Positions 43,142-64,000 of a stretch of DNA of 64,000 nucleotides are shown here, in pieces (the stretch's first letter is position 1; every line of letters begins with the position of its first letter). Source of the stretch: an uncultured Elusimicrobia bacterium (GTDB taxonomy: Bacteria > Elusimicrobiota > Elusimicrobia > 2-01-FULL-59-12); assembly GCA_963702895.1 (NCBI GenBank), contig OY969767.1:1344001-1408000 (forward strand). Direction: 5' to 3'. Under the pieces are notes generated by a model. It was not told the DNA's origin, searched no databases, and worked only from the letters and a program-made list of their open reading frames with translations. The position numbers and the translations under genes were made by a program.

Positions 43142-44613
43142 GCGAGGGTCTCCAGGAGTTGGCGCACCACGAGCCGATCATCGAAAGGGACCGTTCGATC
43201 CGACAGAATCTGATAATTCTCGTGGCCTTTGCCGGCCACCAGCACCAGGTCCCCTTCGGTGGCAAGCGCAATGGCTTTCTGGAGGGCCTGTTCTCGGTCC
43301 AAAATGATTTCGTAGTGGTTCGACCGCACGCGGCGCACACCGACCTCCACGTCCAGAGCAATCCGACCAGGATCTTCACTGCGGGGATTGTCGGAGGTGA
43401 CGATGACTTCGTCACTCATCTGGGCAGCCGCCTCGCCCATCAACGGACGTTTCGCCCGATCTCGGTCCCCCCCACAGCCAAAGACGGTGATCAAACGCCG
43501 GGGATTGAGCTTGCGCAGGGCGGCCATCGCTTTCCGCAAGGCGTCTTCGGTATGAGCATAATCCACCACGACCGTAAATCCCCGCCGGGAGGGGATGCGC
43601 TCCATGCGCCCTGGAACCATCGACACCGTTTCAAGCCCTTCGACAATATCGGGGACGGCAAGGCCCTGAGACAAGGCCACCCCGGCGGCGGCGAGCGCGT
43701 TCATCACGTTATAGTCGCCCACCAGCGGCAGTCGCACAGGATGGTTGCCGCTCGGGGTGCAAAGGAGGAACCGGCTGCCCGTCGCCTCACAGACCAGGTC
43801 TTTCGTCGAGAGATCAGCGGGGCCGGTCAATCGGTAGAGAAGCTTGGGGACCCGGGCTGATCCGAACCCTTTCTGGACCCAAGGATCGTCGGCATTGAGG
43901 ACCGTGCACCGCGGAAAGGCCTTGGAGGATCGAGGTCCAATCGACGTAAAGAGCTTGGACTTTGCCGCGGCATAGGCCTCCATGGTCTTGTGGAAGTCCA
44001 GATGATCCTGGGTGAGATTGGTCAAGACCGCGACATCGAAATCGACGCCTTCCACGCGCGAGAGCTCCAATGCATGGGAGGAGACCTCCATGATACAGGC
44101 TTGGGCGCCCCGTTGGAGGATGTCGGACAAGAAACGCTGGACATCGCTCGCAAAAGGTGTGGTGTTCGGAGCCGGCATACTTTCATTTCCAAAACGGTAA
44201 TTGATGGTCCCGAGCACGCCTGTCGGCCACCCGACATGACGGAAGATGGATTCCACAAGATAGGACGTTGTCGTCTTCCCATTGGTTCCGGTAATGCCGA
44301 CCAGGCGAAGCTTGGACGAGGGGTTGTCCCAGAACCGGACGGAGACGTGCGCCAGGGCCTTGAGGGCGTTGGAAACCTGGACCCGCGTGACAGAACCCGG
44401 GACCACCTCTCCCTCCGCCAGAACAGCAGAAGCTCCCGCTTTCACCGCTCGATCGATGAAGGCCCGTCCATCCTGATGGACTCCCTGAAGGGCGACAAAG
44501 AGCGAGCCTTTCTTGATTTTCCTGGAGTCAAAAGCGATGTCCTCCACGCCAACCTGGGAGGACCCCCGCACATCACAGGGCAGGCCCTGAAGGAGAAATT
44601 CGAGGGTTTTCAT
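43138..44613 (-). CDS. murE: MurE ligase (meso-DAP type)
   Basis: TGTNGKTT, MEVSSH, DYAHT, DNPR, AGKGHE. Confidence 0.97.
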   Translation of the reverse strand: MKTLEFLLQGLPCDVRGSSQVGVEDIAFDSRKIKKGSLFVALQGVHQDGRAFIDRAVKAGASAVLAEGEVVPGSVTRVQVSNALKALAHVSVRFWDNPSSKLRLVGITGTNGKTTTSYLVESIFRHVGWPTGVLGTINYRFGNESMPAPNTTPFASDVQRFLSDILQRGAQACIMEVSSHALELSRVEGVDFDVAVLTNLTQDHLDFHKTMEAYAAAKSKLFTSIGPRSSKAFPRCTVLNADDPWVQKGFGSARVPKLLYRLTGPADLSTKDLVCEATGSRFLLCTPSGNHPVRLPLVGDYNVMNALAAAGVALSQGLAVPDIVEGLETVSMVPGRMERIPSRRGFTVVVDYAHTEDALRKAMAALRKLNPRRLITVFGCGGDRDRAKRPLMGEAAAQMSDEVIVTSDNPRSEDPGRIALDVEVGVRRVRSNHYEIILDREQALQKAIALATEGDLVLVAGKGHENYQILSDRTVPFDDRLVVRQLLETLA

Positions 44614-46349
44614 CAGCGACGGCCTATGATCCGGGCGGTGGCGACGGGGGCCAGCGATTCGGAGGGGATCTTGAGGTAAGGCGCCGCATGTTTCAGGATC
44701 CGCGAAAACAGTGGCGCGGCTTCGGAGCTGCCCCAATAGTTGACACGAGGCTCATCGAGGAAAACGCCGATCACCAGGCGCGGCCGATCGAGTGGAGCAA
44801 AACCGCAAAAGGAGGCGATATAGAGAGAGTCCGAATATTCGCGTGTGCGTGGGTCGATCTTTTGGGCCGTGCCTGTTTTTCCCGCCACGCGGAGCCCCTC
44901 GACATGGGCGGCCTTGCCGGTACCCTCTTCGACGACCGCTCTAAGGATCGAGCGCATGATGGCGGCTGTTTGTTGGGAAACGACCCGTCGAATGGGAGGG
45001 GCGGCCGTCCATTCCTGGTACTGGCCATGTTCATCGATGACGCCCTTGTAGAGACGCGGCTCGTAGAGCAGTCCGCCATTGGCAAGGGCACTGAAGGCAT
45101 TGACGATCTGAAGAGGGGTGGCACCGACTTCTTGGCCGAAAGCGATCGTCTCAAGACTGGAGAGGTGCCACTGCTGCGTGGGCCGAAGAATGCCAGCGCC
45201 ATCGCCCGGGAGACCGCATCCCGAAGGCATGCCGAAACCAAAAGCTCTTGAATAGCGATAGAGGGGGTGTTTCCCCAGCTTGCGGGCGATCTTGGCGGTA
45301 CCGATATTGGACGAGTGGCTGATCACTTCAGAAAACGTCAACCATCCATCCTTTTCATGGTCATGAATGGTTCGTCCGGGAATATCCCATTCGCCGTTTT
45401 CGCAGAAGAAATTGTCTTTGAGCGAAGCGGCACCTTCTTCCAGGGCGGCCGCCGCGGTGACAATTTTGAAGGTGGAGCCGGGCTCAAAGACATGCTCCAC
45501 CGCTGGGTTTTTCAGGTGCTCCGGACCATAATCGGAGGGCTGCAGGGGACTGCCCCAGACGTTGGGGTCAAAAGAAGGCGCCGTGGCCATCGCGAGGATT
45601 TCGCCGGTCTGCGGGTCCTGCACAATCACAGTCCCGCTTTTCGGGCGTGAGAGTTTCATTTGGTCGGCCAGTTCCTGCTCCACAATGGTTTGCAGGGTCC
45701 GGTCCAGCGTCAACACCACCGATTGGGGCGGCAGGTCCGGTTTCGTCGCCACCGGAGACTGGCGCTTCTTCGCGAAGGTCCATGACTTGAAGATCGTGGG
45801 TGTCCCTTGACGGCTGAGCCACCGCTCCGTCATGAGCTCGACACCGGAGAGCCCTTTTTGGTTGTCGCCCACAATACCCAGGACATGCGCGGCCAGCGAC
45901 TCCTCGGGATAGAAACGTTTCGTGTCCGAAGCGACGCTGATGCCGGGGCGTTTGAGGGATTTTATTTTGATGGCCGTGTCCGGATCGAGTCGCCGGGCGA
46001 GCCACACAAAGCGCTTGCGCTGGGTGAGCTTCTGATAAAGGACCTCGAACTTCTCCTGGAGGAGCGGCGCCAAGATTTTCGCGGTCTCCAGGGGGTCCGT
46101 CACCCGGGCAGGGTCGGCATAGCAGGCCCCGCCGTGCAGGCTCATGGCCAGCGTCGCTCCGTTCCTGTCGAGGATCGCGCCTCGTGGGATGATTTCTTGC
46201 AGACGCTGGGCGCGCGTATTTTCACGATCGACGCGCTTCTGGAGCGACGCGTGGCAATAGATCTGAAGATAACCCAGGCGCAGCGCGACAAAGGCGAAGA
46301 ACGCGAGGGACGCGACGCGCGTCATCCAGAGCCTGGTATTTCGGATCAT
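44613..46349 (-). CDS. ftsI: Class B penicillin-binding protein FtsI
   Basis: PRGAILDRNG, EPGSTFK, SSN, GKTGTAQ. Confidence 0.95.
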   Translation of the reverse strand: MIRNTRLWMTRVASLAFFAFVALRLGYLQIYCHASLQKRVDRENTRAQRLQEIIPRGAILDRNGATLAMSLHGGACYADPARVTDPLETAKILAPLLQEKFEVLYQKLTQRKRFVWLARRLDPDTAIKIKSLKRPGISVASDTKRFYPEESLAAHVLGIVGDNQKGLSGVELMTERWLSRQGTPTIFKSWTFAKKRQSPVATKPDLPPQSVVLTLDRTLQTIVEQELADQMKLSRPKSGTVIVQDPQTGEILAMATAPSFDPNVWGSPLQPSDYGPEHLKNPAVEHVFEPGSTFKIVTAAAALEEGAASLKDNFFCENGEWDIPGRTIHDHEKDGWLTFSEVISHSSNIGTAKIARKLGKHPLYRYSRAFGFGMPSGCGLPGDGAGILRPTQQWHLSSLETIAFGQEVGATPLQIVNAFSALANGGLLYEPRLYKGVIDEHGQYQEWTAAPPIRRVVSQQTAAIMRSILRAVVEEGTGKAAHVEGLRVAGKTGTAQKIDPRTREYSDSLYIASFCGFAPLDRPRLVIGVFLDEPRVNYWGSSEAAPLFSRILKHAAPYLKIPSESLAPVATARIIGRR

Positions 46350-46627
46350 AGCTGTATGCCGATGCGCCGCGTCGCGGGCAAGGGGCCCATGGACCGTTCC
46401 TTCGCGACCGCGTCTAAGCGGCTGGGTGAGACGGCCTGATGGATTTGTGTTTGCCGAAGGCCGTTTTGATAAGTCAACCGGTCCACTTCAGCGCGCATGC
46501 TGGACAGATGTCTTCCCAGACGCTGCGCCTGGACATGTTCCCACACCCTCAGCATGAGCACGGCCAGGACGAGGACGCAGAGTTGGACCCACTTCTTCAT
46601 GTTCTCCCTGTCTCGCGCGTTCTTCAT
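46346..46627 (-). CDS. ftsL: FtsL-like cell division protein
   Basis: Single TM plus coiled coil and SPSRLDAVAK, lying between rsmH and ftsI. Confidence 0.75.
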   Translation of the reverse strand: MKNARDRENMKKWVQLCVLVLAVLMLRVWEHVQAQRLGRHLSSMRAEVDRLTYQNGLRQTQIHQAVSPSRLDAVAKERSMGPLPATRRIGIQL

Positions 46628-47559
46628 AAGTGTTCCAACGCCCTGAGCTTCGCGCTGCGGGACCGGGGGTTCGTCTGGACCTCCGTCTCGCTGGGGCGCA
46701 CGGGCTTTCTTTGCAAAAGTCTGCCCCAAGGCTTCCGGTGACACACACATTGAGGAAACCTCGGCGGGCATACACAGCCCTTGACCGCGGCTTGAAAGGC
46801 GGTCTTGACGCGACGGTCCTCCAAAGAGTGGAACGAGATCACCGCCGCTCGCCCCCCGGGAGCCAAATGCTGTTCAAGGCCGTCCAGAGCGGATTGCAGA
46901 TTGGCGAGTTCGCCGTTCACCGCGATACGCAGGGCCTGGAAGCACCGGGTGGCAGGATCCATTCGTTGCAGCGGCGTTGACGTGGTCTTGCGGATGAGCT
47001 CCGCCACCTTCCAAGCGTCATTGCTCAGCGTATGATTTCGGATCGCCTGCGTCAGCGCACGCGCGATCTTTCGCGCCTGGGGTTCTTCCCCATACTCGCG
47101 GAACAACCGCGCGAGCTCCTCTTCGGAGGAATGCGTCAAGACTTGCCAGGCGGTCTGTGTCAAAGACTGGCTCATCCGCATGTCCAGCGGCCCCGGACGC
47201 AGGAAACTAAAGCCCCGGTCCGAGTCCTGGAGCTGCATGGAGGAGAGCCCCAAGTCCAGAAGGATCCCGTCGGCTGTCTCACGACCCCTCTGAGACAGAA
47301 CAGACGGGAACTGGGCATAACTGGCCGCGACCCCTTCGAAGCGTTCGCCAAAACGGGCAAGACGCGTGGTGGCATGGTCCAGGGCCTCGGTGTCCCATTC
47401 AAGGCCCAAGACCTTCATACCCGGGTAGCGCTCCAAGAGCCTTTCGGAATGCCCCCCCAGACCCAACGTCCCATCGATCACCAACGCGGGACCCGGAAAC
47501 GAAAAAAGCTCAACGACCTCCTCCGCCAGGACGGGGACGTGCTCGTGGACCACGCTCAC
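46624..47559 (-). CDS. rsmH: 16S rRNA C1402 methyltransferase
   Basis: HVPVL, DGTLGLGGHS, DLGLSSMQL, FQALRIAVN, NPRSRSAKLR. Confidence 0.98.
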   Translation of the reverse strand: MSVVHEHVPVLAEEVVELFSFPGPALVIDGTLGLGGHSERLLERYPGMKVLGLEWDTEALDHATTRLARFGERFEGVAASYAQFPSVLSQRGRETADGILLDLGLSSMQLQDSDRGFSFLRPGPLDMRMSQSLTQTAWQVLTHSSEEELARLFREYGEEPQARKIARALTQAIRNHTLSNDAWKVAELIRKTTSTPLQRMDPATRCFQALRIAVNGELANLQSALDGLEQHLAPGGRAAVISFHSLEDRRVKTAFQAAVKGCVCPPRFPQCVCHRKPWGRLLQRKPVRPSETEVQTNPRSRSAKLRALEHL

Positions 47560-48005
47560 AGCGCCAGTTGCGGTGCGACTTTTTCGAAACTGACTCGCGC
47601 CACTTTGCTGTAACGGCTCCAGTGTTCCCGGGACCACAATTCGACGTGTCGTAAAACCCCCAAAATGACCACCTGGCGCTTCAGGCCGGCATAGTCCTTT
47701 AAATGCTGAGGGATCAGAATCCGGCCTTGCGCATCGATCTCGGCTTCACAGGCCGCGGAAAGCAGCACCCGCTTAAACGCGCGCTCCTGCGCTTTGTCCT
47801 TCAAGGCAAGCGCGTCCAGTTTCGCGGCCAGGTGGTCCCAATATTTTATCGGAAAAAGAAACAAACACCGCTCCAGGCCCTGGGTCAGCACGTAATCGGC
47901 GCCATGGGATTTTTCGCGGAAATGCGACGGAAGAAAAAGCCTGTTTTTGCCGTCCAGGCCGTGCTCGTACTGCCCGAGGTAACGATAGACTCTACTTTCC
48001 ACCAC
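47556..48005 (-). CDS. mraZ: Transcriptional regulator MraZ
   Basis: G.YEH.LDGKNRL.LP, D.QGRILIP; first gene of the dcw cluster. Confidence 0.95.
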   Translation of the reverse strand: MVESRVYRYLGQYEHGLDGKNRLFLPSHFREKSHGADYVLTQGLERCLFLFPIKYWDHLAAKLDALALKDKAQERAFKRVLLSAACEAEIDAQGRILIPQHLKDYAGLKRQVVILGVLRHVELWSREHWSRYSKVARVSFEKVAPQLAL

Positions 48006-52639: not shown

Positions 52640-52990
52640 TTAATTAATAAACCGAAGCGTCAACGGATAGCGCACGGATTCGCCTTTGTTCGCCCGAAGG
52701 CCCGCGCGGATGACGAGCAGGATATGCCCAATCAGAACCAGCGGCAAAAGGACAAACCCGATCAGAATGTAACAAAGCAAGCCTGCCACAAGAGCATAGA
52801 CCGTCACGGAAAGATTAAAATTCACGGCCTCTTTCCCCTGCTCTTGCAGAACAGGATCGCTCTTCCTCTTGAGGAGCCAGATCAACAGAGGAACCAGGAC
52901 ATTCCCCAGAGGTATCCCAATGTACAGGGAAAGTCCCGCGAGGTGACAGATCATGCTCCAATTGACGGTACTTTGTGTTGGTTCTCCCAT
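52640..52990 (-). CDS. DUF4870 (Tic20-like) membrane protein
   Basis: WSMICHL, PLLIWL.K, QGKEAVNF, YPLTLRFI; SD AAGGAG. Confidence 0.88.
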   Translation of the reverse strand: MGEPTQSTVNWSMICHLAGLSLYIGIPLGNVLVPLLIWLLKRKSDPVLQEQGKEAVNFNLSVTVYALVAGLLCYILIGFVLLPLVLIGHILLVIRAGLRANKGESVRYPLTLRFIN

Positions 52991-53934
52991 GACGTTTCTC
53001 CTTTGACTGAGTGTAGCACATCGGCAAGATTCACCCCGCCGTTGAGCCAGTCGAGTGGCGGTCTCTGCATTTGCCCCAAAGGACATAGGCGTGAAACACC
53101 AAGCCCCTGCAGGTCTCGTTCGAGCTGTTCCTGCCGACCAGTCTCGCCCGCATAACCCACGCAAGAAAGATGCGGCGCGAGGGTTCGCATCTTGTCGAGC
53201 ACATCCTGCCAGCGCTTGAACCCTTCCAGGCGTGGTGCCACCTCCAGTGCGGCCCCCAAGGCCTGCCACTGACTCGGGTCCAAATTTTCCACAAAGATCA
53301 CCTGCGGTGACAAGCAGCCCTGGAGCCGAAAGGGTTCAGCATCAGCGATGATTCGGTCCATCCAGACGTTCGAGAGTTCCTTTTGGGCTTCTTCAAAGAC
53401 AACCCCGACGCTCAGTTGATGACCATACCCAACAAAGCGTGTCCCAGCAGGCACAGAGGCTTGGACGAGCCGAAGGGTCTCATCGGACCCATAGGCCACC
53501 ACGACATCAAAGTCGCACAACAACGTTTCACTCCACGCCACGATGTCGACTAATTCTGAGAGTCTTTCATCCATACGCTCAAGCGACTTCTTCCATGCCA
53601 TTGGAAAGACAGGCTCCCGAAACGATGGTTTAAGGGCCACCTTCCAACCCGATAGGAGGCTTAGCACAACCCCATGGACCCAGGCGGTAAAGGCGTTCGC
53701 CGGCAAGATATGGAGGACCGTTCGTCCGACGTTCGACGTCCGACGTCCCGACATCCATTGGAGGAGTTTCTCACACGTAAGTTCTTCAAAACAACTCGCA
53801 AGCGCGCGCTCGATCGAACGGCGGCTATAGCCAGTTGAAACTTGAAGGGCCTGGATCGTTTCCGACCGGAAGGCGTCGTCCGGATTCAGCCATCGCTCCG
53901 CAACCTGACCCAAATATTCTATCCGATGGTTCAT
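52951..53934 (-). CDS. LuxC-like acyl-CoA reductase
   Basis: VLHILPAN, LKPS.REP.F, VVAYGSDET, YGHQLS, QGCLSP, GVSRLCPLGQMQ.PP..W. Confidence 0.85.
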   Translation of the reverse strand: MNHRIEYLGQVAERWLNPDDAFRSETIQALQVSTGYSRRSIERALASCFEELTCEKLLQWMSGRRTSNVGRTVLHILPANAFTAWVHGVVLSLLSGWKVALKPSFREPVFPMAWKKSLERMDERLSELVDIVAWSETLLCDFDVVVAYGSDETLRLVQASVPAGTRFVGYGHQLSVGVVFEEAQKELSNVWMDRIIADAEPFRLQGCLSPQVIFVENLDPSQWQALGAALEVAPRLEGFKRWQDVLDKMRTLAPHLSCVGYAGETGRQEQLERDLQGLGVSRLCPLGQMQRPPLDWLNGGVNLADVLHSVKGETSWENQHKVPSIGA

Positions 53935-54986
53935 GTTCGATAGGCCTCCGCCGATAGCGAACAACCCCGGACCTCAGCATTCGGAGCCCGACCAAGCAGA
54001 TGAAAAGCGTCGGACGTCGAACGTCGGACGGACGTTCCAAGGTCCTCCGTCTGAACAGCCATCACGGAATCCACATTGGCCAGGTCAAAATGCCGCAAAA
54101 GGCCGGTTTCGCCTTCCTTGGCGAGTCCACCCGTCACCGAATCCACAACGATGGTTCGCGTCCAAGGAGGTCCTTGGAGAGAGGAAGTCCCCCCTCGTCC
54201 ATAGAATTGAGAACTGAGCTCACACATTCCATATTCATTAATGCATGCTTCTTCTGGGATGCCCAGGGATACTGTCACTTGCTGCACAAATTCTGGCCTG
54301 GTCACCTGGCGTTTCTCTGTTTTCATTCCCCCCGTATCCATCAACCGGCTGCCAGGAGGAAGACGAAATATCTTTCCCGTCTTGCTTAGATAATCAAAGA
54401 ATTTCAGGAAGCTAATCGTTGTGCCCAAGAGAGCCACCGGCACTCCGGTACTTTCCGACTCGCAAAGTTTCCGGAAGAGTTGTGTCTCGAGGAGAACACC
54501 TCGTTCGATGAAGGTGCCGCTACCGGGTGTGCCAAATTTGCGCTTGACGACCTCCAGCATCCAACTCAAGGAAGAGTGCGGGGCCTCCGCTGGAGCCGGC
54601 GCTAACACCAGCATGGGCAGGCGCGCCTGGTCCGGCAAGACTTGAGATGAGAAAAAGCTCTCAAGCGAGCTCTCGTAGTAGCGAAGTGTCCGAAGATAGT
54701 GTTGGCTCCGGGACGATGAGGTCGTGCCGCTCGAACGAAACACCGCCGCCGCTTGGGCCACAGGAAAGGTGGCCAGCTCAGAGGACTTAAAGGCGGACAC
54801 GGGAACCGCGGGAATTTCCTGCCAGGTCTGGATCCGCACCGGACTCAGACCCTGCGCGCGGCAAAAGGCCTGATAGGGTTTGTTGCGCGCAAACTGATAG
54901 GCAAAAAGTTCAAGGGCGACAGACTCAAAATCACCCGTGCCCGTGCGCAAGAATTGCTCGATACGCTGTCCAAGGCTTTCGGTCAT
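53931..54986 (-). CDS. LuxE-like acyl-protein synthetase
   Basis: IPAVP..AFK, FRSSGTT, MDTGGMK, NEYGMCELSSQ, DLAN, TEDLG, LGR..AEVRGCS. Confidence 0.88.
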   Translation of the reverse strand: MTESLGQRIEQFLRTGTGDFESVALELFAYQFARNKPYQAFCRAQGLSPVRIQTWQEIPAVPVSAFKSSELATFPVAQAAAVFRSSGTTSSSRSQHYLRTLRYYESSLESFFSSQVLPDQARLPMLVLAPAPAEAPHSSLSWMLEVVKRKFGTPGSGTFIERGVLLETQLFRKLCESESTGVPVALLGTTISFLKFFDYLSKTGKIFRLPPGSRLMDTGGMKTEKRQVTRPEFVQQVTVSLGIPEEACINEYGMCELSSQFYGRGGTSSLQGPPWTRTIVVDSVTGGLAKEGETGLLRHFDLANVDSVMAVQTEDLGTSVRRSTSDAFHLLGRAPNAEVRGCSLSAEAYRT

Positions 54987-56458
54987 ACGGTTTTTATGCC
55001 GTCACCCCGGCGGAAGCCGGCCCTCCACACATCCGGCGGGCCGTCCGCCCTGCCGTGTGGCGGACGGGGTCCATCATTGTCGGCAAAGAATGGATAGATC
55101 CCCCGCTTACTACCGCGGGGGATGACGGCGAACAGTACCTCACAGAGAATATGGGTTGCCAATTTTAAATCATTTCCTGAAATGGTCAGCGGCGGCGTGA
55201 GGGTGAGCACATTGCGCCGGACTCCTCCGGACAAGACGATGAGCCGCTTCTTGAGCGATTCGGTGACCACCCGCGCGGCAAGCCTGGGTGCCGGCGTGAG
55301 GGTTTTCTTGTCTTGGACCAATTCGATGCCGATCATAAGCCCCAGACCGCGCACCTCTCCCACACAGGGATGATCGGCCAAGGCGTCCTGGAGTTCCCTG
55401 AGCCACGGTTTGCCCACACGCGAGGCCCGCTCGGCCAGCTTCTTCGCTCGAAGTTCCTTCAGCGTCGCAAGCGCCATCGCACATCCCAGGGGATGGCCCA
55501 GAAACGTGCTCGTATGGATGGCCTCGCCATCCGACGGCGGCCACGCGTCCATCGCGGCCCGTGTGCCCAGGCAGGCCGAAAGAGGAAAACCATTCGTCAG
55601 CGCTTTACCGACGCAGACAAGGTCCGGGTCGACGCCAAAATGATCCACCGCCAAAAACCGGCCGGTCCGGCCGGTGCCAGAAAAGATCTCGTCGTCGATC
55701 AAGAGCAGCTGATAGCGCCTCGCGAGCGCTCGCAAACCCCGTAGAAACACGGGGCCGGCGACGCGCACGCCGCCCCGGCCTTGCACGGGCTCCACGATAA
55801 TCGCTCCAAAGGGCCCGGCGGGATGTTTCCCTTGCTTGAGGAGGCGCTCTAAGTTCTCAAGGCACCGCTCGGCAGAGTTCCCGCGGAGCTCATCGGGGAA
55901 TGGCGAAAGCGCGCACCAGGCGGGCAGTTGATCTTGGAACGGATTTCGAAAATCTTCTCGATCGCACAACCCGAGGGTCCCGTAGCTCAGCCCATGGTAG
56001 GCCCCATCGAAAGCGATCACACCTTTCTTGCCTGTCGCCAGGCGCGCCGTTTTGAGGGCAGACTCCACCGCTTCCGCGCCGGAGCTCGAAAGGATGGCGA
56101 GCGGAAATCGTCGCGAAGTGGCCACGCTCAAGGCCTCAAGGAGCTGAACTTTGACCGCATTGGGATGCACGTCGCCCATGCCATGCCACATCTTTTGGCT
56201 TTGTTTTACGATAGCGCGCTGGACGCAAGGTGCCCCGTGACCCAACCCGGCCACACCGAAGGCGCTCGTGAGGTCGAGATACCGAGTGCCGTCCACGTCC
56301 CTCACCCAGGAGCCTGCGGCGGACTCCCAGAACACGGGAAAGTCATCCGAGAGGTAGGTGATATTCCTGGACTCGACCCGGCGCAGCCGCCGCGCAAGCT
56401 GTCGGGATTTCGGACCCGGAAGGCGACTAGGGTGAGCGAGCGAAGTGAGTCGATTCAT
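54983..56458 (-). CDS. Class III PLP aminotransferase (GabT/ArgD-like) with repeat-derived C-terminal extension
   Basis: DVDG..YLD, SGAEAVESALK, YHG, EPVQGRGG, DEIFSG.GRTG, GKAL, STF.GHP. Confidence 0.92.
   Translation of the reverse strand: MNRLTSLAHPSRLPGPKSRQLARRLRRVESRNITYLSDDFPVFWESAAGSWVRDVDGTRYLDLTSAFGVAGLGHGAPCVQRAIVKQSQKMWHGMGDVHPNAVKVQLLEALSVATSRRFPLAILSSSGAEAVESALKTARLATGKKGVIAFDGAYHGLSYGTLGLCDREDFRNPFQDQLPAWCALSPFPDELRGNSAERCLENLERLLKQGKHPAGPFGAIIVEPVQGRGGVRVAGPVFLRGLRALARRYQLLLIDDEIFSGTGRTGRFLAVDHFGVDPDLVCVGKALTNGFPLSACLGTRAAMDAWPPSDGEAIHTSTFLGHPLGCAMALATLKELRAKKLAERASRVGKPWLRELQDALADHPCVGEVRGLGLMIGIELVQDKKTLTPAPRLAARVVTESLKKRLIVLSGGVRRNVLTLTPPLTISGNDLKLATHILCEVLFAVIPRGSKRGIYPFFADNDGPRPPHGRADGPPDVWRAGFRRGDGIKTV
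54998..55129. repeat. REP-like element (same family as the uvrB-upstream repeats) inside the aminotransferase CDS
   Basis: GCCGTCACCCCGGCGGAAGCCGG..GGTCCA..GATCCCCCGC..GCGGGGGATGACGGC. Confidence 0.75.
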
Positions 56459-56484: not shown

Positions 56485-56517
56485 ACGGGGACGTTGGTAA
56501 CTTACCAACGTCCCCGT
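56485..56517. repeat. Perfect 33-bp palindrome
   Basis: ACGGGGACGTTGGTAA-C-TTACCAACGTCCCCGT. Confidence 0.9.
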
Positions 56518-56525
56518 GTGTCCTG

Positions 56526-57910
56526 GAGTTACCATCAAAAGTGCTGGAAATAGGTTCTGAGGCAAGGAAGGATTTGCCTTAGGAATAGATAACGGCGTAC
56601 CCTTTCGTTGAACCAAACAAACCTGTCCGTTCAAGCGGACAATAAACGAAAAGGAGACGCCGTTATGAAGACCATTGTAAACGTGAAAGGCTGCGAACAC
56701 AAAGAGAGCATGCTGGATTATCTGGCCCGAGAGGGAGCGCGCAAAATGCTGGTGGAAGCCCTGGAGGAAGAAGTGACGATGTATCTGGAGCGGCGGCGCT
56801 ATGAGCGGGCGAAGAGCCTGGAGAAAGGCTATCGCAACGGAACCCGGGAGCGGAAGGTGACAGTTTTGGGAGCAGGTTTAAAGCTCTCGGTGCCGCAAGT
56901 CGACGGGGGCGAGTTTGAGTCGAGCATCTTGCGTCCGTACCAGCGGCGAACCGAGGGTGTCGAGGAGTTATTCCGGCGGCTGTACCTGGAGGGGCTCTCG
57001 AGCCGGGACTTTGAGCCGGCGATGCGAGCACTGATCGGGGATGGAGCCACCTTATCAGCCAGCACGATCCTGCGTTTATCGGCGAAGTTTCAATCGGACC
57101 TGGCCACCTTCAGCCGCCGGGACTTATCCGAAACGCGTTACGCCTATGTCTGGGCGGACGGCGTGTACTTGAAGGCCGGGCTGGAGAAAGAGAATACGGC
57201 GCTTTTAGTGTTGGTTGGCGTGAATGCCGATGGGAAGAAAGAGCTGATTGCTCTGATGGAAGGCTACCGGGAGAGCCGGGATTCCTGGAAGGAAATCTGG
57301 CGAGGGGTGGCGGAGCGTGGAATGCCCGCTCCGCTCTTGGTTATCGGCGATGGGATGGGTGGGCTCTGGGAGGCGGTGGCGGAGGTCTATCCGACCGCCA
57401 AAGATCAACGGTGCTGGAAGCACAAGATGCGCAACGTCGTGGATAAAGTGCCGAAGGCCAAGCAAGAGGAGGTGCTCAACCGTCTGCGCGTAGCGTATCA
57501 GGCGGAGCGTCGAGAAGACGCGGAGAATCACCTGGCCTTGTTAGCCGAGGACCTGGAGATTCGCTACCCGAAGGCGGCGGCTTGTATCCGGAAGGACCAT
57601 GACGCCTTGCTGCGCTACTTCGACTTTCCGAAGGAGCACTGGGTGCATTTAAAGACGAGCAATCCGATCGAGTCGGTCTTCGCGGGGGTCCGATTGCGAA
57701 CTCGCGTTGTGCGGCGGTTTCAGAAATCTCGCACGGGAGTAGCGTTCGTCTACAAAATCATTGAACGCCTGGCGCAATTCTGGAAGCCGATTGAGAAGCC
57801 GGAATTGGTGATGGGATTATTCGTCGAACGAGAGAAGCTGGAGGTAGCGGCCTAAGAGACTTTCGACCAAAGGGGCGCCGATCGATTTCCATCACATTTG
57901 ACTAAAGCTC
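56526..57910 (+). mobile_element. IS256-family insertion sequence, 1,385 bp
   Basis: 26-bp imperfect IRs (19/26) GAGTTACCATCAAAAGTGCTGGAAAT and GAGCTTTAGTCAAATGTGATGGAAAT; 9-bp TSD TGTGTCCTG at 56517-56525 and 57911-57919. Confidence 0.95.
56665..57855 (+). CDS. IS256 (Mutator-type DDE) transposase
   Basis: YRNG, LYLEGLSSRD, VWADG, IGDG, QRCWKH, TSNPIES; SD AAGGAG. Confidence 0.96.
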   Translation: MKTIVNVKGCEHKESMLDYLAREGARKMLVEALEEEVTMYLERRRYERAKSLEKGYRNGTRERKVTVLGAGLKLSVPQVDGGEFESSILRPYQRRTEGVEELFRRLYLEGLSSRDFEPAMRALIGDGATLSASTILRLSAKFQSDLATFSRRDLSETRYAYVWADGVYLKAGLEKENTALLVLVGVNADGKKELIALMEGYRESRDSWKEIWRGVAERGMPAPLLVIGDGMGGLWEAVAEVYPTAKDQRCWKHKMRNVVDKVPKAKQEEVLNRLRVAYQAERREDAENHLALLAEDLEIRYPKAAACIRKDHDALLRYFDFPKEHWVHLKTSNPIESVFAGVRLRTRVVRRFQKSRTGVAFVYKIIERLAQFWKPIEKPELVMGLFVEREKLEVAA

Positions 57911-58027
57911 TGTGTCCTGGGCCGTCGATACCCATATTTTATGGGTCTTTTAGGCCCGTATTTTTGGCCTTCCCTACTATATATTCATTGCCGGAAACCC
58001 CCTATTATTAAGGAGACTAGATCTTCG

Positions 58028-61000
58028 ATGATTCCCTTTATATTTCAGCGATTTGTCGCACTTCTCCTGGTCCCCTCCCTTCTCGTGGACCCGCTCACGG
58101 CGGCTGCCTTATCCAATGAAAGTCCGAGACCTGTTGACTTGGCTGCCGCACGCGGCGTCAATTTCCTCAACCAAGCCTTAATGGAGAGGCTGACAGGCGC
58201 TGAATTCCATCCTGCCGCATCGCCAAAACATATCAGTGTCGTGAAGGATTTAATTCAAAGATTGAGGGAAGCCGCGAAAGGGAAAGTTCAGGGCGGGTCG
58301 TCAACCGATCATCCGTCCTCTGGTAAGGTCGGCCATGGCGATACCGCAGGCTCCGTTAACGGAAATGGTATGTCGCGGCGTGATTTGCTGAAGCAATCTG
58401 CGCTGGCTTTGATGGTTCAGAACCTTCCGGCAGCGGCTCAAGCGGCTCTCGAGGCAGTCCCCATGAAGAGGCGCACGGCTTTTATCCAATTTCTCAGTGC
58501 CTTTCAACAAACACTTGAAGCCTTGCCGCGCGAGGTGAGAGACTACCATCAGGACCCCGACCTCCAGATGGGTGCCGGCAAATTCGGAGAGTTGGCAGAC
58601 GCGATCAGATCCTTGCGCGCTCAAGGAGCTTCGTCAGGGTTCAGCTCGGGCGCGTTGGGGGATTTGCAGGACATCTTTAAATTTTTGCAAGGGTCCGTTC
58701 GTCAACAGGTGGCGTCTCCGGAGTGGCAGACCCGATTTGCTCCAGAGACGCTCAGGATGCTCCAACTCGCAGCCTCGTCACCGAATGACTTTGAGCTGGA
58801 ATATCGTGTCGGCCTCTCCTGCCGCTGGCTGGAAAGCAACGGTATACAGGTAAGCCGTGAGGCAGCCCTGCAATCCGCGCGCGACGCTGTGGTGACGGGG
58901 CAAGAGCCACTTGGCGACTACCTTCAGAAGTGGCTTACGCCGCTCGTTTCAGAGCGTGTCGCGCCTACGGTCGCGCAGGAGGCGCAGCAATTGGCTCGCC
59001 TCGGCGCAAACCCAATTCAAACGGCGGATGCTTTTGCCGTGGAATTCATCCGTGAGTTCCAAAAACATCCTGGCAACGCTTTCTGGCCGAATCCGGATAA
59101 ATTCCAGAAATATGTTCATGGCCAGGCGCGGCTCAAGGCGTTAGATGCGTTCCGCAGCAGCGTCAGCGAATTGGGGACGACCCTGGCGAAGGCTGGGGTC
59201 AGAATCGACGGCGGATTTGTGTCAGCATACAGCAATGACGACTGGGGTTTTAACAAATGGATGAAGGATCCCGCTGCCTATATCCAAGAGATCCGAAGAA
59301 TCACTTGGACTTCGCATGTCCGCGGAATGATGTTACAGCGGCTCGAAGAAAAACGGTCACGCTACAACCACGTCGCCTACCAGCGATTGAGAGACAGCAT
59401 CTTTGACATCCAGGACGAGGGCCTCGATCTGGACGCGGACCCCGACACGCTGTTCCACCAGCTCGAGTCCGCCATGGACGCGGAAGGAATCAACCGTCTC
59501 CCGGCAATTCCCGCGAACCGCGTGCCGCCTCCAATGTCCCAGGTTAAGGCACCCGGCGGCGTGCCCGCGGATCTGGATTCGCTCGTCAAGGACATTGCCG
59601 AGAGAGCGACAGCGACGGATGTCGAGGTCCGGGTCTTTATGGATGCGAAGGGGGCCGTCCGGTTTTTCGACATCCGCCCCTTGGATCCAAACGTGAGAGG
59701 CTTGCTGAGGACCCTGAGAGGCGCAGACCTCCCGTTCCTGAAGAAGAGGAACGGCCGCCCAGGGTGGCGTTACGGAATGCGCATCTCAAAGGGGACGCCT
59801 GCCTCAAAGATCAAATCGCGTCTCTTGTCGGGACTCGATTCTGGCCTCTGGCTGGACTTTTACACGGCGCCGCAGCATGACGGATCCCGCCTCCTCCCAG
59901 CTCAAGAGCCGCAAGCGAGCGAACCACTTTTAGCGCCCCGGATGAGCATTTTCAGCGGCCCCGAGTGGTTTGAACGGTGGGGCGCCCCCCTGGAAAGCGT
60001 GATGGTGGGCGCTCTGGCCAGCGGGATCCCGGCGCTTCTGCTTCTCCTTGTGGGCGTGGACTCAAGTGCTCCGACTGTCCTAAACGAGGCCGTCTTGTTG
60101 CCCGCGATGGCTTTGCTGATCTTGACCTTGGGCCAATGGTTGGCCGTTGACCTGTATAGCGGGCGGCATCCTTTGGATCGAAGGGAAGCATGGGACCGGT
60201 TGATCCGAAATGGCACATGGCTTCGGACTCCGCCGCAGAAGGTGCACGGTTGGGCCACGCGCATTGCCCTGGGCGCTGGCGCCGCGGCGCTGCTCCTGCA
60301 GGCCACGCCGGTACTACCCCTCAGCCTGGCGTCCTACCTCGCCGTCGTCGCAGGGACCTACACGCTGACCCATCTGGCCGTTCATTTCCACCACAATCTC
60401 ACCCACGACAGCGACTTGCGCATGAGCCTTCGTCCGGCCGTACGACCTCCGCTCAATATCCCGATCATGGAATCCCTAAGAGAGCGATGGAAATCGATTT
60501 TGATCGCCGCGCTGTCTCCTCTTCCGTTTTATCTCATCCCCAGAATTATACAGAGACTCATGAAATGGCCGTTTCCTTCGGATCTGGAATTTATGATCAC
60601 ACTTCTGTTCGGTTTTGCGATCGGCATGGCGGGCATGATCATCTATGAAACAGCCGCGCATACGCTGAAATCTCAACGTGGGGCGGGGACCGAACCTTCG
60701 GGACCCTTGGTGACCCAGGGCTTATATCAATGGGTCCGACACCCTATTTACATGGGTTATTTCCTTGCCTACGGCGGAATCCTGTCGATGTTCAGCTCTC
60801 TGATTACCACCGTGCCCTTATTTGTCGTTCTCCCTTCGGTGGTCTACTACTGTGTCGACAAAGCGGGCGCGGAAGAGACCCACTTGCATGCTCGGTTCGG
60901 CGATTTATATCGTGATTACGCGCGCCGCACCCCTTCCTTTTTCCCCTTCCGGCTGCCACGGCTCCGTCTGATGTCGGCAACGGCTCCCGCGGTCGACGGC

Positions 61001-64000
61001 CAACACGAAACTCAAGACCCGGATTCCGAAATCGCCGTTGAGGAGAAGCCTCTCGTCATCATGGCCGAAGATGACCGCCTGCGCCGGCCGCGTATCTTTG
61101 ACGAGATCACAAAATTCCTTGGTGATGCCTATGCTTATCGCGTCTGCAACGATGGGCTTGAAGCGTGGAAAGTCATTGAGGACGCTATAGCATCCGGCCG
61201 CCCCATTGCCCTTCTCGTCACCGACATCTCCATGCCCGGAATTTCGGGATCGGAATTGACGGCACGTCTGCTCGCGTTGCACCCATATGTCCCCATCATC
61301 ATTCATACCACCGAAGCTATGGACGACCTCAGACAAGCGTTCATGGACCCCCGCGTTCGAATCGTTGCCAAAGAAAATTACGCTGGCCTTCGAAGCGATA
61401 TTGCGGAACTTCTGAAGTTGCCCCCCAACGCCGCGGTCGGTAGCGCGGATTCAGCTCCGATGCCGCAGGATGACCCATCACCCGCCAAAAAGACAACTGA
61501 ACCGGCCGCGGGGACTCCTGCAACTCCTGAGCCATCGTCCACAGAACCACAAGCATGGTTGTCGTCGTTCCACGACCAAACCGAAGTCTGGGTGTTCTTC
61601 TTGATCGGCGCCTCCCTGCTCGCGGCCCAAGGTCACATCTTCCCGGTGACCGCGGACTCCGAGACGATGCCTGTGGGTCTTCCCGTGTTTCTTGGATTGG
61701 GGCCCCCTTACAATTTCATTGTCGGTGCTTTTGATCGGGCCCTCCGCCGGATTTTTCCACCTCTGTTTTCGGGACCGGCTGAAGCGTTCACAAATCTGAC
61801 GCCGGAATGGTTTCGAGCGTCCTACAGCGCTTGGCTGCAAACTAAGCGAGGCCGTGCGCTCACGACGGAGGAAGAAACTGAAATTGATCGGTTTGCGCGA
61901 CTCTTGGCTCCCCCGCTGAATCCCATACGCGCAGAAAAACCGACCTGGAAGGACGAATGGAACTCTGCGTACCGGTACATTTTTTTAGGGCAACCTTTGG
62001 ACCTCAAGTCAAAGCGCGCACCAGCGGAAAACGCGACCTCCCTTGGTGAATTGAACGACGCGCTGAAGATTATCGACGGCTACCCCCGCCTATGTTTAAC
62101 GGCTGCCCCCTTGGCGTTTAAGATCCTTCAGGCGCGGGGCTTTTCCGTTCGAAGGGTGAGACGGACGAGATTCGAGGGGATCGTTGAACACGAGTATGTC
62201 GAAGTCGAAGTGGCGGGGCAGTGGCTCATTGTTGATTTGGTGGCGAGCCAATTCGGCATCTTGCAAACCTGGGGTGTTGTCGCGATCCCGAAAGAAATCG
62301 CGACATCCGAGCCTGCCGTGCAGATCTACACGTACGGGGAAGCGGTCGTAAAGGAACAGGCCTTGCTGCCATCCAACCCTGAGACCCCAGGTGTTAGCGA
62401 TAGCCGCGATCTCATCGGACTTGACGCGGTACGGTTTGTTCTATCGAATCAGATGGGACGGAGACTCCCCGAGACCACCATTCAAGAATTGACCAGCTAC
62501 ATCGAAGACTTCTTAAGGGCGCATCAGCTGGAATGGTTGCTGGACCGTGCCAGCATCACGGAGACACGACAGGGGGTGCGGGACAGCACCTCGGAGCTCC
62601 ATGCAGGGCACCAAAACCAAAACAGCCTCGACTGGGTCGAACCCGCGCTGGCTGCGCGCGGCGCCTCCAGGGACACGATCTACCAGCTCAGGTACACTCT
62701 GCCTGGACGATCTCCTCGTAACACTCACGCCGTTTATGAAGCGGTGTCTGCTCTCCTGTTGACGCTCGTGCCGGATGACGTGCCAGTCTATCGCTGGATC
62801 GAGCCCGCCCATGCTGGCCTCCCGGGCGGCGACAGCATGCGAAGCTATTGGGCCGTTGCAACGGCCCAAAACAACAAAGACTTTGCCCATTCAGGCCGTA
62901 TCCTTCTTAAAAGCTATTTTGGACGCCTCAGGCAGACAGGCGTCTTGGTTGACGATACGGGCGTTGACTTCCCAGCCATCTCTCTGATCCATGATCGAAG
63001 AAACGGCCTTGTTTCGCATGAGGTTGTAACTCCTCAACTCGTGCAACCTGGTCCCACCGCATCCACGCTTTCCTCTGCTTTCTCAATACTGGCGGTCTGG
63101 TTGCCCATCCTGATCGGCGCCTCCCTGCTCGCGGTCCAGATGGCATCCGGCCAGTTCTTCCCGGGAGCCGCACAACCAGAAGCCCTGCAGGCGGGCGGCG
63201 CGGCCATGGGGCTGGGCTGGCTCTTCTTGCGTTTGATGGATCTGGTCTCTGCGCCTGAAGGACGCCACGTGGATCCAAGCCCGTCCAGGACGGCGAAAAC
63301 CCAGGCGGCCGATCTGGGAATAGTCTTCAAGCCCCATCTGCTTGAACAATTGCGATATGCGCTCCAAGGCCCCCGTATCGAAGTTTTGAAACGGTTGTTG
63401 GAGTGGGCGGAAGGGTCCGAACTGCGAGGATTGTATCTTCGCACTACCCTGATGCAGCTTGTCGAGGACAATCCCTCATTCGGGGATCGCTTTCATCAAA
63501 AAACGCTTGCCTTGTTCCGGGAGCTGCGCTCGACACCGACACGTTCGACGGTGCAGTACCTGGCATCCCTATTCACGAAAGACAGTACCGCAGGGGTATG
63601 GCTAAAAAACAACCGGATATTCTTGTGGGACGCCACTCACACCTTCGAAGGTCGAATCAATGTGCGGTATTCCCTAAGCTCCGGCCAACGTCAAGCCTTG
63701 GTCGGCGATCTTCTTGTCCCGGAGTCCGGCTCCACCTTCCTGCTGGAATCGGTCCGGGAGGTCTTGAACGACAACCGTATTGGCGATGACGATTTGAACT
63801 ATCCGCTGCAGGTAACAATGATTCAGGAAGGGCTTCGTCAAAAGGTTTACGCCGTGTTCGTCGAATTGAAGGACGGCCGAATGGCGCCGTTTGTCATATC
63901 GGTGCCCCAGAGCGTGAAGCAGAACAACATGGTCAGGAAGGAATTCGAATACTTGCGCCTCCACATAGGTGATCCGCATGCTTTGAGCGTCCTTCGATTA
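58028..64000 (+). CDS. Giant multidomain membrane protein, 3' partial (at least 1,991 aa)
   Basis: Manual translation finds no stop from ATG 58028 (AAGGAG at 58010) to the window end; signal peptide, ICMT/PEMT motif VRHPIY, REC motif TDISMP, transglutaminase-like C-H-D. Confidence 0.93.
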   Translation, partial: MIPFIFQRFVALLLVPSLLVDPLTAAALSNESPRPVDLAAARGVNFLNQALMERLTGAEFHPAASPKHISVVKDLIQRLREAAKGKVQGGSSTDHPSSGKVGHGDTAGSVNGNGMSRRDLLKQSALALMVQNLPAAAQAALEAVPMKRRTAFIQFLSAFQQTLEALPREVRDYHQDPDLQMGAGKFGELADAIRSLRAQGASSGFSSGALGDLQDIFKFLQGSVRQQVASPEWQTRFAPETLRMLQLAASSPNDFELEYRVGLSCRWLESNGIQVSREAALQSARDAVVTGQEPLGDYLQKWLTPLVSERVAPTVAQEAQQLARLGANPIQTADAFAVEFIREFQKHPGNAFWPNPDKFQKYVHGQARLKALDAFRSSVSELGTTLAKAGVRIDGGFVSAYSNDDWGFNKWMKDPAAYIQEIRRITWTSHVRGMMLQRLEEKRSRYNHVAYQRLRDSIFDIQDEGLDLDADPDTLFHQLESAMDAEGINRLPAIPANRVPPPMSQVKAPGGVPADLDSLVKDIAERATATDVEVRVFMDAKGAVRFFDIRPLDPNVRGLLRTLRGADLPFLKKRNGRPGWRYGMRISKGTPASKIKSRLLSGLDSGLWLDFYTAPQHDGSRLLPAQEPQASEPLLAPRMSIFSGPEWFERWGAPLESVMVGALASGIPALLLLLVGVDSSAPTVLNEAVLLPAMALLILTLGQWLAVDLYSGRHPLDRREAWDRLIRNGTWLRTPPQKVHGWATRIALGAGAAALLLQATPVLPLSLASYLAVVAGTYTLTHLAVHFHHNLTHDSDLRMSLRPAVRPPLNIPIMESLRERWKSILIAALSPLPFYLIPRIIQRLMKWPFPSDLEFMITLLFGFAIGMAGMIIYETAAHTLKSQRGAGTEPSGPLVTQGLYQWVRHPIYMGYFLAYGGILSMFSSLITTVPLFVVLPSVVYYCVDKAGAEETHLHARFGDLYRDYARRTPSFFPFRLPRLRLMSATAPAVDGQHETQDPDSEIAVEEKPLVIMAEDDRLRRPRIFDEITKFLGDAYAYRVCNDGLEAWKVIEDAIASGRPIALLVTDISMPGISGSELTARLLALHPYVPIIIHTTEAMDDLRQAFMDPRVRIVAKENYAGLRSDIAELLKLPPNAAVGSADSAPMPQDDPSPAKKTTEPAAGTPATPEPSSTEPQAWLSSFHDQTEVWVFFLIGASLLAAQGHIFPVTADSETMPVGLPVFLGLGPPYNFIVGAFDRALRRIFPPLFSGPAEAFTNLTPEWFRASYSAWLQTKRGRALTTEEETEIDRFARLLAPPLNPIRAEKPTWKDEWNSAYRYIFLGQPLDLKSKRAPAENATSLGELNDALKIIDGYPRLCLTAAPLAFKILQARGFSVRRVRRTRFEGIVEHEYVEVEVAGQWLIVDLVASQFGILQTWGVVAIPKEIATSEPAVQIYTYGEAVVKEQALLPSNPETPGVSDSRDLIGLDAVRFVLSNQMGRRLPETTIQELTSYIEDFLRAHQLEWLLDRASITETRQGVRDSTSELHAGHQNQNSLDWVEPALAARGASRDTIYQLRYTLPGRSPRNTHAVYEAVSALLLTLVPDDVPVYRWIEPAHAGLPGGDSMRSYWAVATAQNNKDFAHSGRILLKSYFGRLRQTGVLVDDTGVDFPAISLIHDRRNGLVSHEVVTPQLVQPGPTASTLSSAFSILAVWLPILIGASLLAVQMASGQFFPGAAQPEALQAGGAAMGLGWLFLRLMDLVSAPEGRHVDPSPSRTAKTQAADLGIVFKPHLLEQLRYALQGPRIEVLKRLLEWAEGSELRGLYLRTTLMQLVEDNPSFGDRFHQKTLALFRELRSTPTRSTVQYLASLFTKDSTAGVWLKNNRIFLWDATHTFEGRINVRYSLSSGQRQALVGDLLVPESGSTFLLESVREVLNDNRIGDDDLNYPLQVTMIQEGLRQKVYAVFVELKDGRMAPFVISVPQSVKQNNMVRKEFEYLRLHIGDPHALSVLRL

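Follow-up and report, generated by a model that had tools for sequence, protein, structure and literature searches.

What is a single bacterial membrane protein that strings together several unrelated enzyme domains for? The question is raised by the right-hand end of a 64,000-nucleotide stretch of DNA from an uncultured Elusimicrobia bacterium (assembly GCA_963702895.1, contig OY969767.1, positions 1,344,001 to 1,408,000; hereafter "the window"), where one open reading frame (ORF) begins at position 58028 and runs out of the window. In the accessible text of several papers, giant multi-enzyme membrane proteins are described from the Omnitrophota and are also noted in Elusimicrobiota (West-Roberts et al. 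2023, 10.1101/2023.11.21.568195; Nielsen and Lui 2026, 10.64898/2026.06.07.730766; Amaral and Devos PMC11573180; PMC12057145), and receivers, papain-like peptidases and methylases are named among their domains in the available part of another (PMC12419801). Published work leaves competing hypotheses for their function. Giant proteins of this kind are already known, and what is apparently new here is the promoter that they share and the homing of IS256-family insertion sequences (ISs) to it.

The answer to which we lean, at somewhat less than an even chance, is that the protein presents a string of modifying and signalling domains to the cytoplasm from the producer's inner membrane, is induced together with its relatives at a particular stage, and is cleared by way of an ssrA-like tail. 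It would be one of a family of inner-membrane proteins, specific to this lineage and rapidly reshuffled, whose genes are induced jointly, and would itself serve as a membrane-bound string for protein modification and signalling. The original prediction, made from the sequence alone, had proposed instead an exported membrane scaffold whose enzymes form an effector chain delivered to a host or prey, or a processed polyprotein.

The Giant Gene and Its Family

The source genome (G000) is a single contig of 2.72 Mb with 57% GC. The giant ORF lies on the plus strand from 58028 to the window edge at 64000 and, as its earlier reading as an open frame leaving the window implied, continues on the contig to a stop 972 bases farther on (window-equivalent 64972; C1:1408972), for a total of 2,314 aa. 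An alternative in-frame ATG occurs upstream at 57941; 58028 is preferred because that ATG falls within the promoter element and the leaders of paralogs align beginning at 58028. The ORF is confirmed as real. Across its 12 blocks, G+C content at third codon positions exceeds that at second positions in every one, as in coding DNA, and an unbroken frame of 2,314 codons is the more telling because the assembly contains homopolymer errors, such as the break of rpoD at a G7 run (G000 ~1429975). A search of 1.84 billion representatives returned one full-length record, the same sequence on the same contig, and no independent allele.

The protein opens with a family leader (58028..58207, plus strand) consisting of a signal-peptide-like helix (LLLVPSLLVDP), a spacer and an F-x-x-QAL motif. 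A hidden Markov model of this leader finds 15 matches in the source genome and 5–39 per genome in nine of ten other family genomes, with none in the tenth (G007). It had been foreseen that paralogs would share the N-terminus and carry other cargo, and this is the case: cargo differs in every paralog scanned and includes TIM, FBPase, PfkB, RmlD, sigma region 4, DnaJ and HTH domains, and one paralog in the source genome reaches ~12.9 kaa (thousand aa). No orthologue, and hence no fixed architecture, was found among 41 related genomes, which gave single-domain matches only. Similarly, residues 1241–2226 as a query against the 1.84 billion representatives yielded 43 matches including itself, the other 42 sharing a single domain each. 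On the preferred reading, new genes would arise by fusion of cassettes between reusable membrane spacers.

Family members also share an end. Among 19 hand-listed giants of the source genome, the C-terminal residue is Ala in 19 and the last two are Ala-Ala in 14; genome-wide, only 47 of 1,590 ORFs end in this way, counting those 14 giants and nine IS copies. The transfer-messenger RNA tag of the same genome ends LALAA. The Ala-Ala end may thus act as an ssrA-like signal through which a ClpX/FtsH-type protease would remove or trim the chain at the end of its stage.

Several paralogs show features of their own. In the next one downstream (G000 ~1409110; L001:9024-9200), the leader is out of frame with a 2,464-codon body at a C8 run; a programmed frameshift was considered, and the break is probably an assembly error instead, since rpoD has a similar break in its G7 run. 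Another family gene (G000 1604215-1608903, minus strand; L015) retains its promoter and leader intact; two in-frame stops divide it into pieces of 71, 460 and 1,029 codons, and it ends AAA. The paralog at 101783 (L003:11786-16267, minus strand) contains a near-exact internal duplicate of ~95 aa that spans a helix pair. Lastly, a hairpin of the CGAACGCGCG...CGCGTTCG type stands directly before the start codon of the paralogs at 1099321, 1417356, 2351901, 391118 and 460761, and is absent from the giant gene.

A Shared Putative Promoter Element

A 70-bp putative promoter element (57939..58008, plus strand), recognized by leave-one-out rank, a family-wide model and symmetry analysis, precedes the giant gene. 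It comprises the palindrome GGGTC-TTTT-AGGCCC (57943-57957), a second, degenerate unit starting at TTGGCC (57964-57969) and, 33 bp farther on, a putative -10 box, TATTAT (58003-58008). The family consensus reads GGGCC-N4-GG.CC, with the degenerate second unit 22 bp on (TTAGCC...CYAT) and 33 bp from TTAGCC to TAnAAT. In leave-one-out ranking, where the ranks include training sites, the element of the giant gene stands 8th among 5.4 million positions, and those of 12 out of 15 paralogs rank 7–26.

The 29 best sites in the source genome comprise 16 before giant-family genes, 12 before other genes and one without an ORF. Non-giant targets include PorV-like and TraF_2-like genes (both outer-membrane-barrel-like), PilZ, a receiver, a GH2 hydrolase and secreted proteins without a name. 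Start codons lie 4–7 nt past the -10 hexamer in seven of these 12, which fits a -10 box with leaderless mRNA. A sigma-54 promoter was rejected by eye, as the GG-to-GC spacing is 13 and not 10. One non-giant gene, of ~195 aa and without a Pfam match, stands behind the element in both the source genome and G008 (L076:4900-5475, L060), the two copies being alike by eye.

A model built from the source genome only finds between 1 and 56 sites in each of the ten other family genomes at E <= 1. Non-self loci returned numbered 27, of which 24 were read and three weak ones (in G004 and G007) left out. Of 23 readable top sites, 17 precede leader-profile matches (E < 0.01), five precede giant-type N-termini recognized by eye and one precedes another protein. 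Counts of sites and leaders rise together over 11 genomes (rho 0.95); the family genomes G004 and G007, though near-complete, have few or none of either, which makes them a natural foil in the search for the activator. At E <= 0.001 the model matched six of seven family genomes and none of 53 other genomes of the class; the element is therefore either family-specific or diverged beyond reach elsewhere.

The preferred reading would have one dimeric activator bind the two palindromes, which are 22 bp apart (centres near -65.5 and -43.5), and drive a sigma-70-type -10 box, so that the giant genes, along with a small number of surface genes, come on in a single physiological stage, probably surface or cell contact. 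No account of this promoter, of a regulon of these genes or of a promoter-homing IS256 was found in a literature search whose coverage was thin for subscription journals and excluded bioRxiv supplements, with their domain catalogues that could bear on the novelty of single domains; the promoter and regulon are apparently unpublished. A family-specific promoter also makes the function of such giants testable without culture, as it points to transcript starts and to co-regulated genes and supplies a DNA bait for the activator and, through it, for the inducing signal.

Insertion Sequences at the Promoter

The promoter is also an insertion target. Directly upstream of the giant gene's element is an IS256-family element (56525..57910, plus strand; NF033543 303.7 bits against a cut-off of 150, PF00872), which ends 29 bp before it. 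The target duplication of these ISs is 8–9 bp, here TGTGTCCT at 56517-56524 and 57911-57918. Nine copies with target duplications occur in the source genome, and all nine end 29–31 bp upstream of a motif site, in both orientations (5:4). When scored with a matrix from 11 sites not preceded by an IS, the sites at eight copies rank 5–26 and that at the ninth ranks 351. Relatives of this IS in other family genomes (27–29%) are too distant for homing to be tested.

A second, divergent Mutator-like IS of 1.3 kb, whose weak Pfam match falls just below the cut-off, is present in two copies (G000 2241855-2244540 and 2504160-2506843; L074, L081), and its 14-bp duplications directly abut the motif at two different sites. 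At the same spot in the end of this IS, two different IS256 variants were later inserted.

In the available part of the literature, IS256 insertion is reported to be random, with promoter targeting confined to the p-MULT 3 and 4 groups (Guerillot et al. 2014, PMC3942029), and the position of all nine copies at one promoter class is at odds with this. The likeness to TnGBS/ISLre2 (p-MULT 3) and the ISKra4 group (p-MULT 4) is a fixed distance upstream of promoters; as far as those groups are described there, the IS256 of the source genome (IS256 proper, p-MULT 1) differs in lying ~70 bp upstream of the -35 position rather than 15–17 bp, in using both orientations and in choosing one promoter class only (PMC3942029). 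Homing lends independent support to the presence of a protein on this DNA, and suggests that IS256 is tethered by a host DNA-binding protein.

Domains of the Giant Protein

Behind the leader, the first ~510 aa (58367..59887, plus strand) gave no convincing relatives for residues 110–630 in Pfam, NCBIfam and further homology searches. This region opens with a weak twin-arginine-like stretch (MSRRDLLK...), and its reading as a twin-arginine translocation (Tat) signal failed the hydrophobicity filter. Across the family, internal Tat signals gave one hit in 56,248 residues, compared with one in 561,452 residues of other proteins; the giant protein is not among their carriers, and the numbers are too few to judge.

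Two of the domains called beforehand are above their Pfam cut-offs. The ICMT/PEMT-family membrane methyltransferase domain (60470..60967, plus strand) scores 27.6 bits against 24 over aa 889–953 and aligns with PDB entries 5v7p (E 1.8e-6) and 4a2n (E 6e-4), with the RHP.Y and EE..L..FG..Y motifs intact. It falls under the cut-offs of three NCBIfam equivalog or exception models (NF040696, 41 bits against 160; also LmtA and MddA). By its motifs the domain is a member of the ICMT/PEMT family with an S-adenosylmethionine (SAM) site, but does not reach the level of an isoprenylcysteine substrate. The receiver domain (61046..61417, plus strand) scores 32.6 bits against 30.2 over aa 1011–1107 and retains the acidic pair (AEDD), the phospho-acceptor Asp at 61223, the Thr and the Lys.

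The remaining three cargo domains had no Pfam or NCBIfam matches, and PDB sequence profiles gave nothing below E 0.2. Nonetheless, predicted structures support the proposed domains to graded degrees, and the residues named beforehand are exactly where they were placed. A first helix pair (61586..61732, plus strand), of which 44 bp are 86% identical to the second, leads into a domain of predicted papain/transglutaminase fold (61760..62347, plus strand) with Cys 62093, His 62189 and Asp 62234 (C1356, H1388, D1403) in order. A model of aa 1236–1680 (predicted local distance difference test, pLDDT, 68), which covers this domain and the next, had no Foldseek match at E <= 0.001; for the triad domain the top rows, at E > 0.1, are yet mostly Cys-His-Asp enzymes. 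VIA-align placed its first half nearest PMT C3 (Z 7.4; root-mean-square deviation, rmsd, 4.6 over 134 aa) and SseI (Z 6.7; 3.5 over 115), and also TglA and NATs. The full triad is kept in one of four homologues, with Cys-His-Glu in one more.

Next comes a helical part with an ADP-ribosyltransferase (ART)-like core (62420..63037, plus strand; VYR and S.W motifs). The core (model residues 338–433) is closest to AvrPphF ORF2 (Z 6.0; rmsd 2.6 over 77 aa), followed by 9ld3 (Z 4.5) and Tpt1 7yw2 (Z 3.9). It has nine homologues, plus P0044; the Arg and Ser of the R-S-E signature are invariant, and no conserved catalytic Glu was seen. The Atlas search gave no more than a lead for this domain and no reading for the N-terminal 510 aa. 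Since Z values below 8 may reflect merely a common arrangement, by the tool's own warning, support is moderate for the predicted Cys-His-Asp domain and weak for the ART-like one.

After a second helix pair (63080..63247, plus strand), which resembles one in the next paralog, the last cargo domain extends from 63320 past the window edge to window-equivalent 64672 (plus strand). What had been a weak guess at a kinase-like N-lobe now has strong backing as a fold: the AF2 model of aa 1765–2215, built from 13 sequences (pLDDT 85), has 158 Foldseek matches at E <= 0.001 (best PknB, 3.2e-5), and its bilobed form aligns with Bud32 (Z 10.9) and APH (Z 10.3) in VIA-align. In the family alignment, with motifs mapped by eye (F.L.VAR, IAWR), an invariant Gly-Asp with a nearby Asn and a conserved Glu are retained, and no beta-3 Lys or DFG Asp was seen. 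The predicted domain is thus probably an atypical kinase or pseudo-kinase, the canonical Lys and DFG Asp being apparently missing. A third helix pair (window-equivalent 64712-64912, plus strand) and a basic tail, ...RQRALGRAA, complete the protein.

Topology and the Location of the Cargo

Downstream of the leader, 14 hydrophobic helices form seven pairs, whose loops are short and for the most part poor in K/R, and the tail has five K/R; the helices were picked by hydropathy and by eye, several being weak (mean Kyte-Doolittle hydropathy 0.9–1.2). Paired helices of this kind would leave all cargo on one cytoplasm-like face. Among 40 family N-termini, a later helix is present in 28, and K/R is higher before it than after in 20, lower in three and equal in five; the other 12 have none in the part read. 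The binomial p of 0.0005 for this bias is overstated, as kin are not independent.

These features would place the chain behind the leader inside, and fit one stitched by its helix pairs into the producer's own inner membrane, so that the receiver, Cys-His-Asp, ART-like and kinase-like domains would face the cytoplasm with its SAM, NAD and ATP. A cytoplasmic face is favoured because paralog cargo such as TIM, FBPase, PfkB, RmlD, sigma region 4, DnaJ and HTH needs the cytoplasm. Inner-membrane-anchored cytoplasmic enzymes are one surviving hypothesis in the accessible part of a recent preprint (Nielsen and Lui 2026, 10.64898/2026.06.07.730766, section 21).

Several observations count against this reading. 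The leader resembles a cleavable Sec signal of N-in orientation, which would export residues 28–656 and flip every later helix pair; the QAL segment is too weakly hydrophobic to be an obvious return helix in the giant protein. Topology itself comes from hydropathy and charge counts and not from a trained predictor. Of the 15 paralogs, three score poorly for the promoter element (ranks 50, 5405 and 8156), and the search for an activator singled out no candidate, since OmpR, sigma-70 and CRP families occur in motif-rich and motif-poor genomes alike. Two cargo domains have their closest folds among effector or toxin domains, and about nine stand-alone proteins related to the kinase-like, ART-like and triad domains have a signal-like start (by eye) and at most one hydrophobic helix. 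The conflict between leader and topology means either a hairpin or re-entrant leader in the producer, or a topology that is realized in another cell, an option that the stand-alone relatives keep alive; it is thus a point on which the own-membrane and delivered-effector models can be sharply told apart.

Delivery to a host is accordingly possible, if rather unlikely. Under this explanation, the chain would leave its producer by means of the leader and reach a host or prey bacterium through a Tad or type II/IV-pilus contact; once there it would take up the positive-inside topology, its cargo would modify host proteins and lipids or reroute host metabolism, and the promoter would define an attack or attachment regulon. 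It would resolve the conflict between leader and topology. The nearness of the cargo folds to PMT C3, SseI and AvrPphF ORF2 also speaks for it, as do architectures that differ between all genes (the 42 other library matches share at most one cargo domain with the region), leader genes that number up to 39 per genome and are lacking in G007, and a regulon with two outer-membrane-barrel-like genes (one PorV, one TraF_2), a GH2 hydrolase and PilZ. The source genome has four secretins and a Tad pilus locus at 717–730 kb (L208: T2SSF, T2SSE, secretin, TadE/G, PorV-like), which adjoins the largest giant-gene cluster (730–808 kb). A further point in favour is the transfer of giant proteins between species in another symbiosis, as reported in a 2026 preprint (10.64898/2026.03.19.712371).

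On the other side, type III/flagellar (FHIPEP), VirB4 and type VI (VipB) markers have zero matches in the source genome, and among five genomes FHIPEP occurs in G004 only. We know of no route by which a 14-helix protein with an integral methyltransferase could cross two envelopes. The giant gene is flanked by an IS and by more giants, no small immunity-like gene was seen among these ORFs, and the triad is complete in only one of four homologues. The original prediction is partly supported, in its order of domains, its kinship with other giants and its paralogs, while its exported scaffold and delivery stay hypothetical. A more elaborate form of delivery, a dedicated contact regulon, is unlikely as a whole: one activator would induce dozens of reshuffled polyproteins, the Sec-like leader and a pilus-type machine would pass them to another bacterium, their cytoplasm-facing topology would rewire metabolism and signalling there, and the activator-bound promoter would also attract insertions of at least two unrelated ISs, including an IS256 with gained target specificity.

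The Four-Helix Module and Possible Self-Processing

A self-processing polyprotein is improbable. It would require that the four-helix His-rich module between the N-terminal region and the methyltransferase (59942..60430, plus strand; AP.(W)ES ... H ... HxxxHxxHN, with "RMS" at each end) belong, as a divergent member, to the CPBP/Rce1-type intramembrane proteases and, together with signal peptidase, divide the chain into pieces that act separately. The module recurs in other long ORFs. A single-sequence search of 301 genomes of the phylum found two matches including itself, and a profile was needed: this detects the module in 17 of 151 genomes of the class, and where coverage is good the matches lie in open frames of 507–8,021 aa. 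Of 33 listed matches, 27 were aligned and six short or partial ones left out.

Across the 27, AP.WES, His and HxxxN follow in the order of CPBP/Rce1 proteases (PF02517), which likewise have four helices, and "MS" stands at each end. Aligned by hhalign, the final H..N falls on the H..N of CPBP. The score, however, is low (probability 1.4%, E 0.037; controls 0.1% and 0.3%), PF02517 matches none of the 27, a PDB sequence profile search gave nothing significant, and the module has ES where CPBP has EE, the second Glu being Ser in the consensus. The module is therefore CPBP-like at motif level only, below profile significance. In the source genome it is found in one family gene only. A conserved coupling of Rce1 to ICMT was also rejected: ICMT follows none of the 26 other modules within the 29–500 aa read, so that the order seen here looks accidental. 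For Omnitrophota giants, autocleavage has been proposed in the accessible text for other protease domains (West-Roberts et al. 2023, 10.1101/2023.11.21.568195).

Least probable is a largely neutral domain graveyard, in which fusion and gene conversion let cassettes accumulate, many of them without activity: the kinase-like family without canonical catalytic residues, the variable triad, the paralog with two in-frame stops and the lack of orthologues speak for it, but 2,314 codons are open although the assembly frameshifts even rpoD at a homopolymer, the methyltransferase and receiver motifs are intact, and promoter, leader and tail are conserved across genera.

Comparison with Known Systems

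The kinship with Omnitrophota and Elusimicrobiota giants that had been suggested is supported by the signal-like N-terminus, the many transmembrane helices and the unrelated enzyme domains. As far as the accessible descriptions of Omnitrophota giants go, these features are shared, together with cytoplasm-type cargo (receiver, methyltransferase, HATPase, sugar enzymes) and secretin and Tad-type genes, here beside the largest cluster. The giant protein is, however, smaller, at 2.3 kaa compared with 10–147 kaa, and stays below the catalogue threshold of 10 kaa. It has no C39, S8 or SecA domains by Pfam, which could miss divergent copies, and the shared promoter, the Ala-Ala tail and the helix-pair spacer grammar do not appear in the parts of those descriptions that are available.

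Polyvalent proteins of phages and conjugative elements, reportedly described by Iyer and colleagues in 2017, are said to be large, with diverse enzymatic domains in shuffled order and a proposed role in conflict. The giant proteins resemble them in size, diversity and shuffling but are chromosomal, multi-copy and membrane-stitched, with a Sec-like leader and no phage or conjugation context seen. The upstream element recalls the PIP box of Xanthomonas, a bipartite upstream element at a fixed distance from the -10 box that marks a dispersed set of genes. It shares these three properties but has palindromic symmetry, and a search of five genomes found no AraC-family gene.

Other Genes in the Window

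Two gene rows precede the giant gene and its IS256 element. On the minus strand at 52951-56458 are ORFs that we take, by their motifs, to be class-III aminotransferase-like, LuxE-like and LuxC-like. Farther upstream, also on the minus strand, a row at 44613-48005 presumably comprises mraZ-, rsmH-, ftsL- and ftsI-like ORFs and marks the start of a cell-division cluster.

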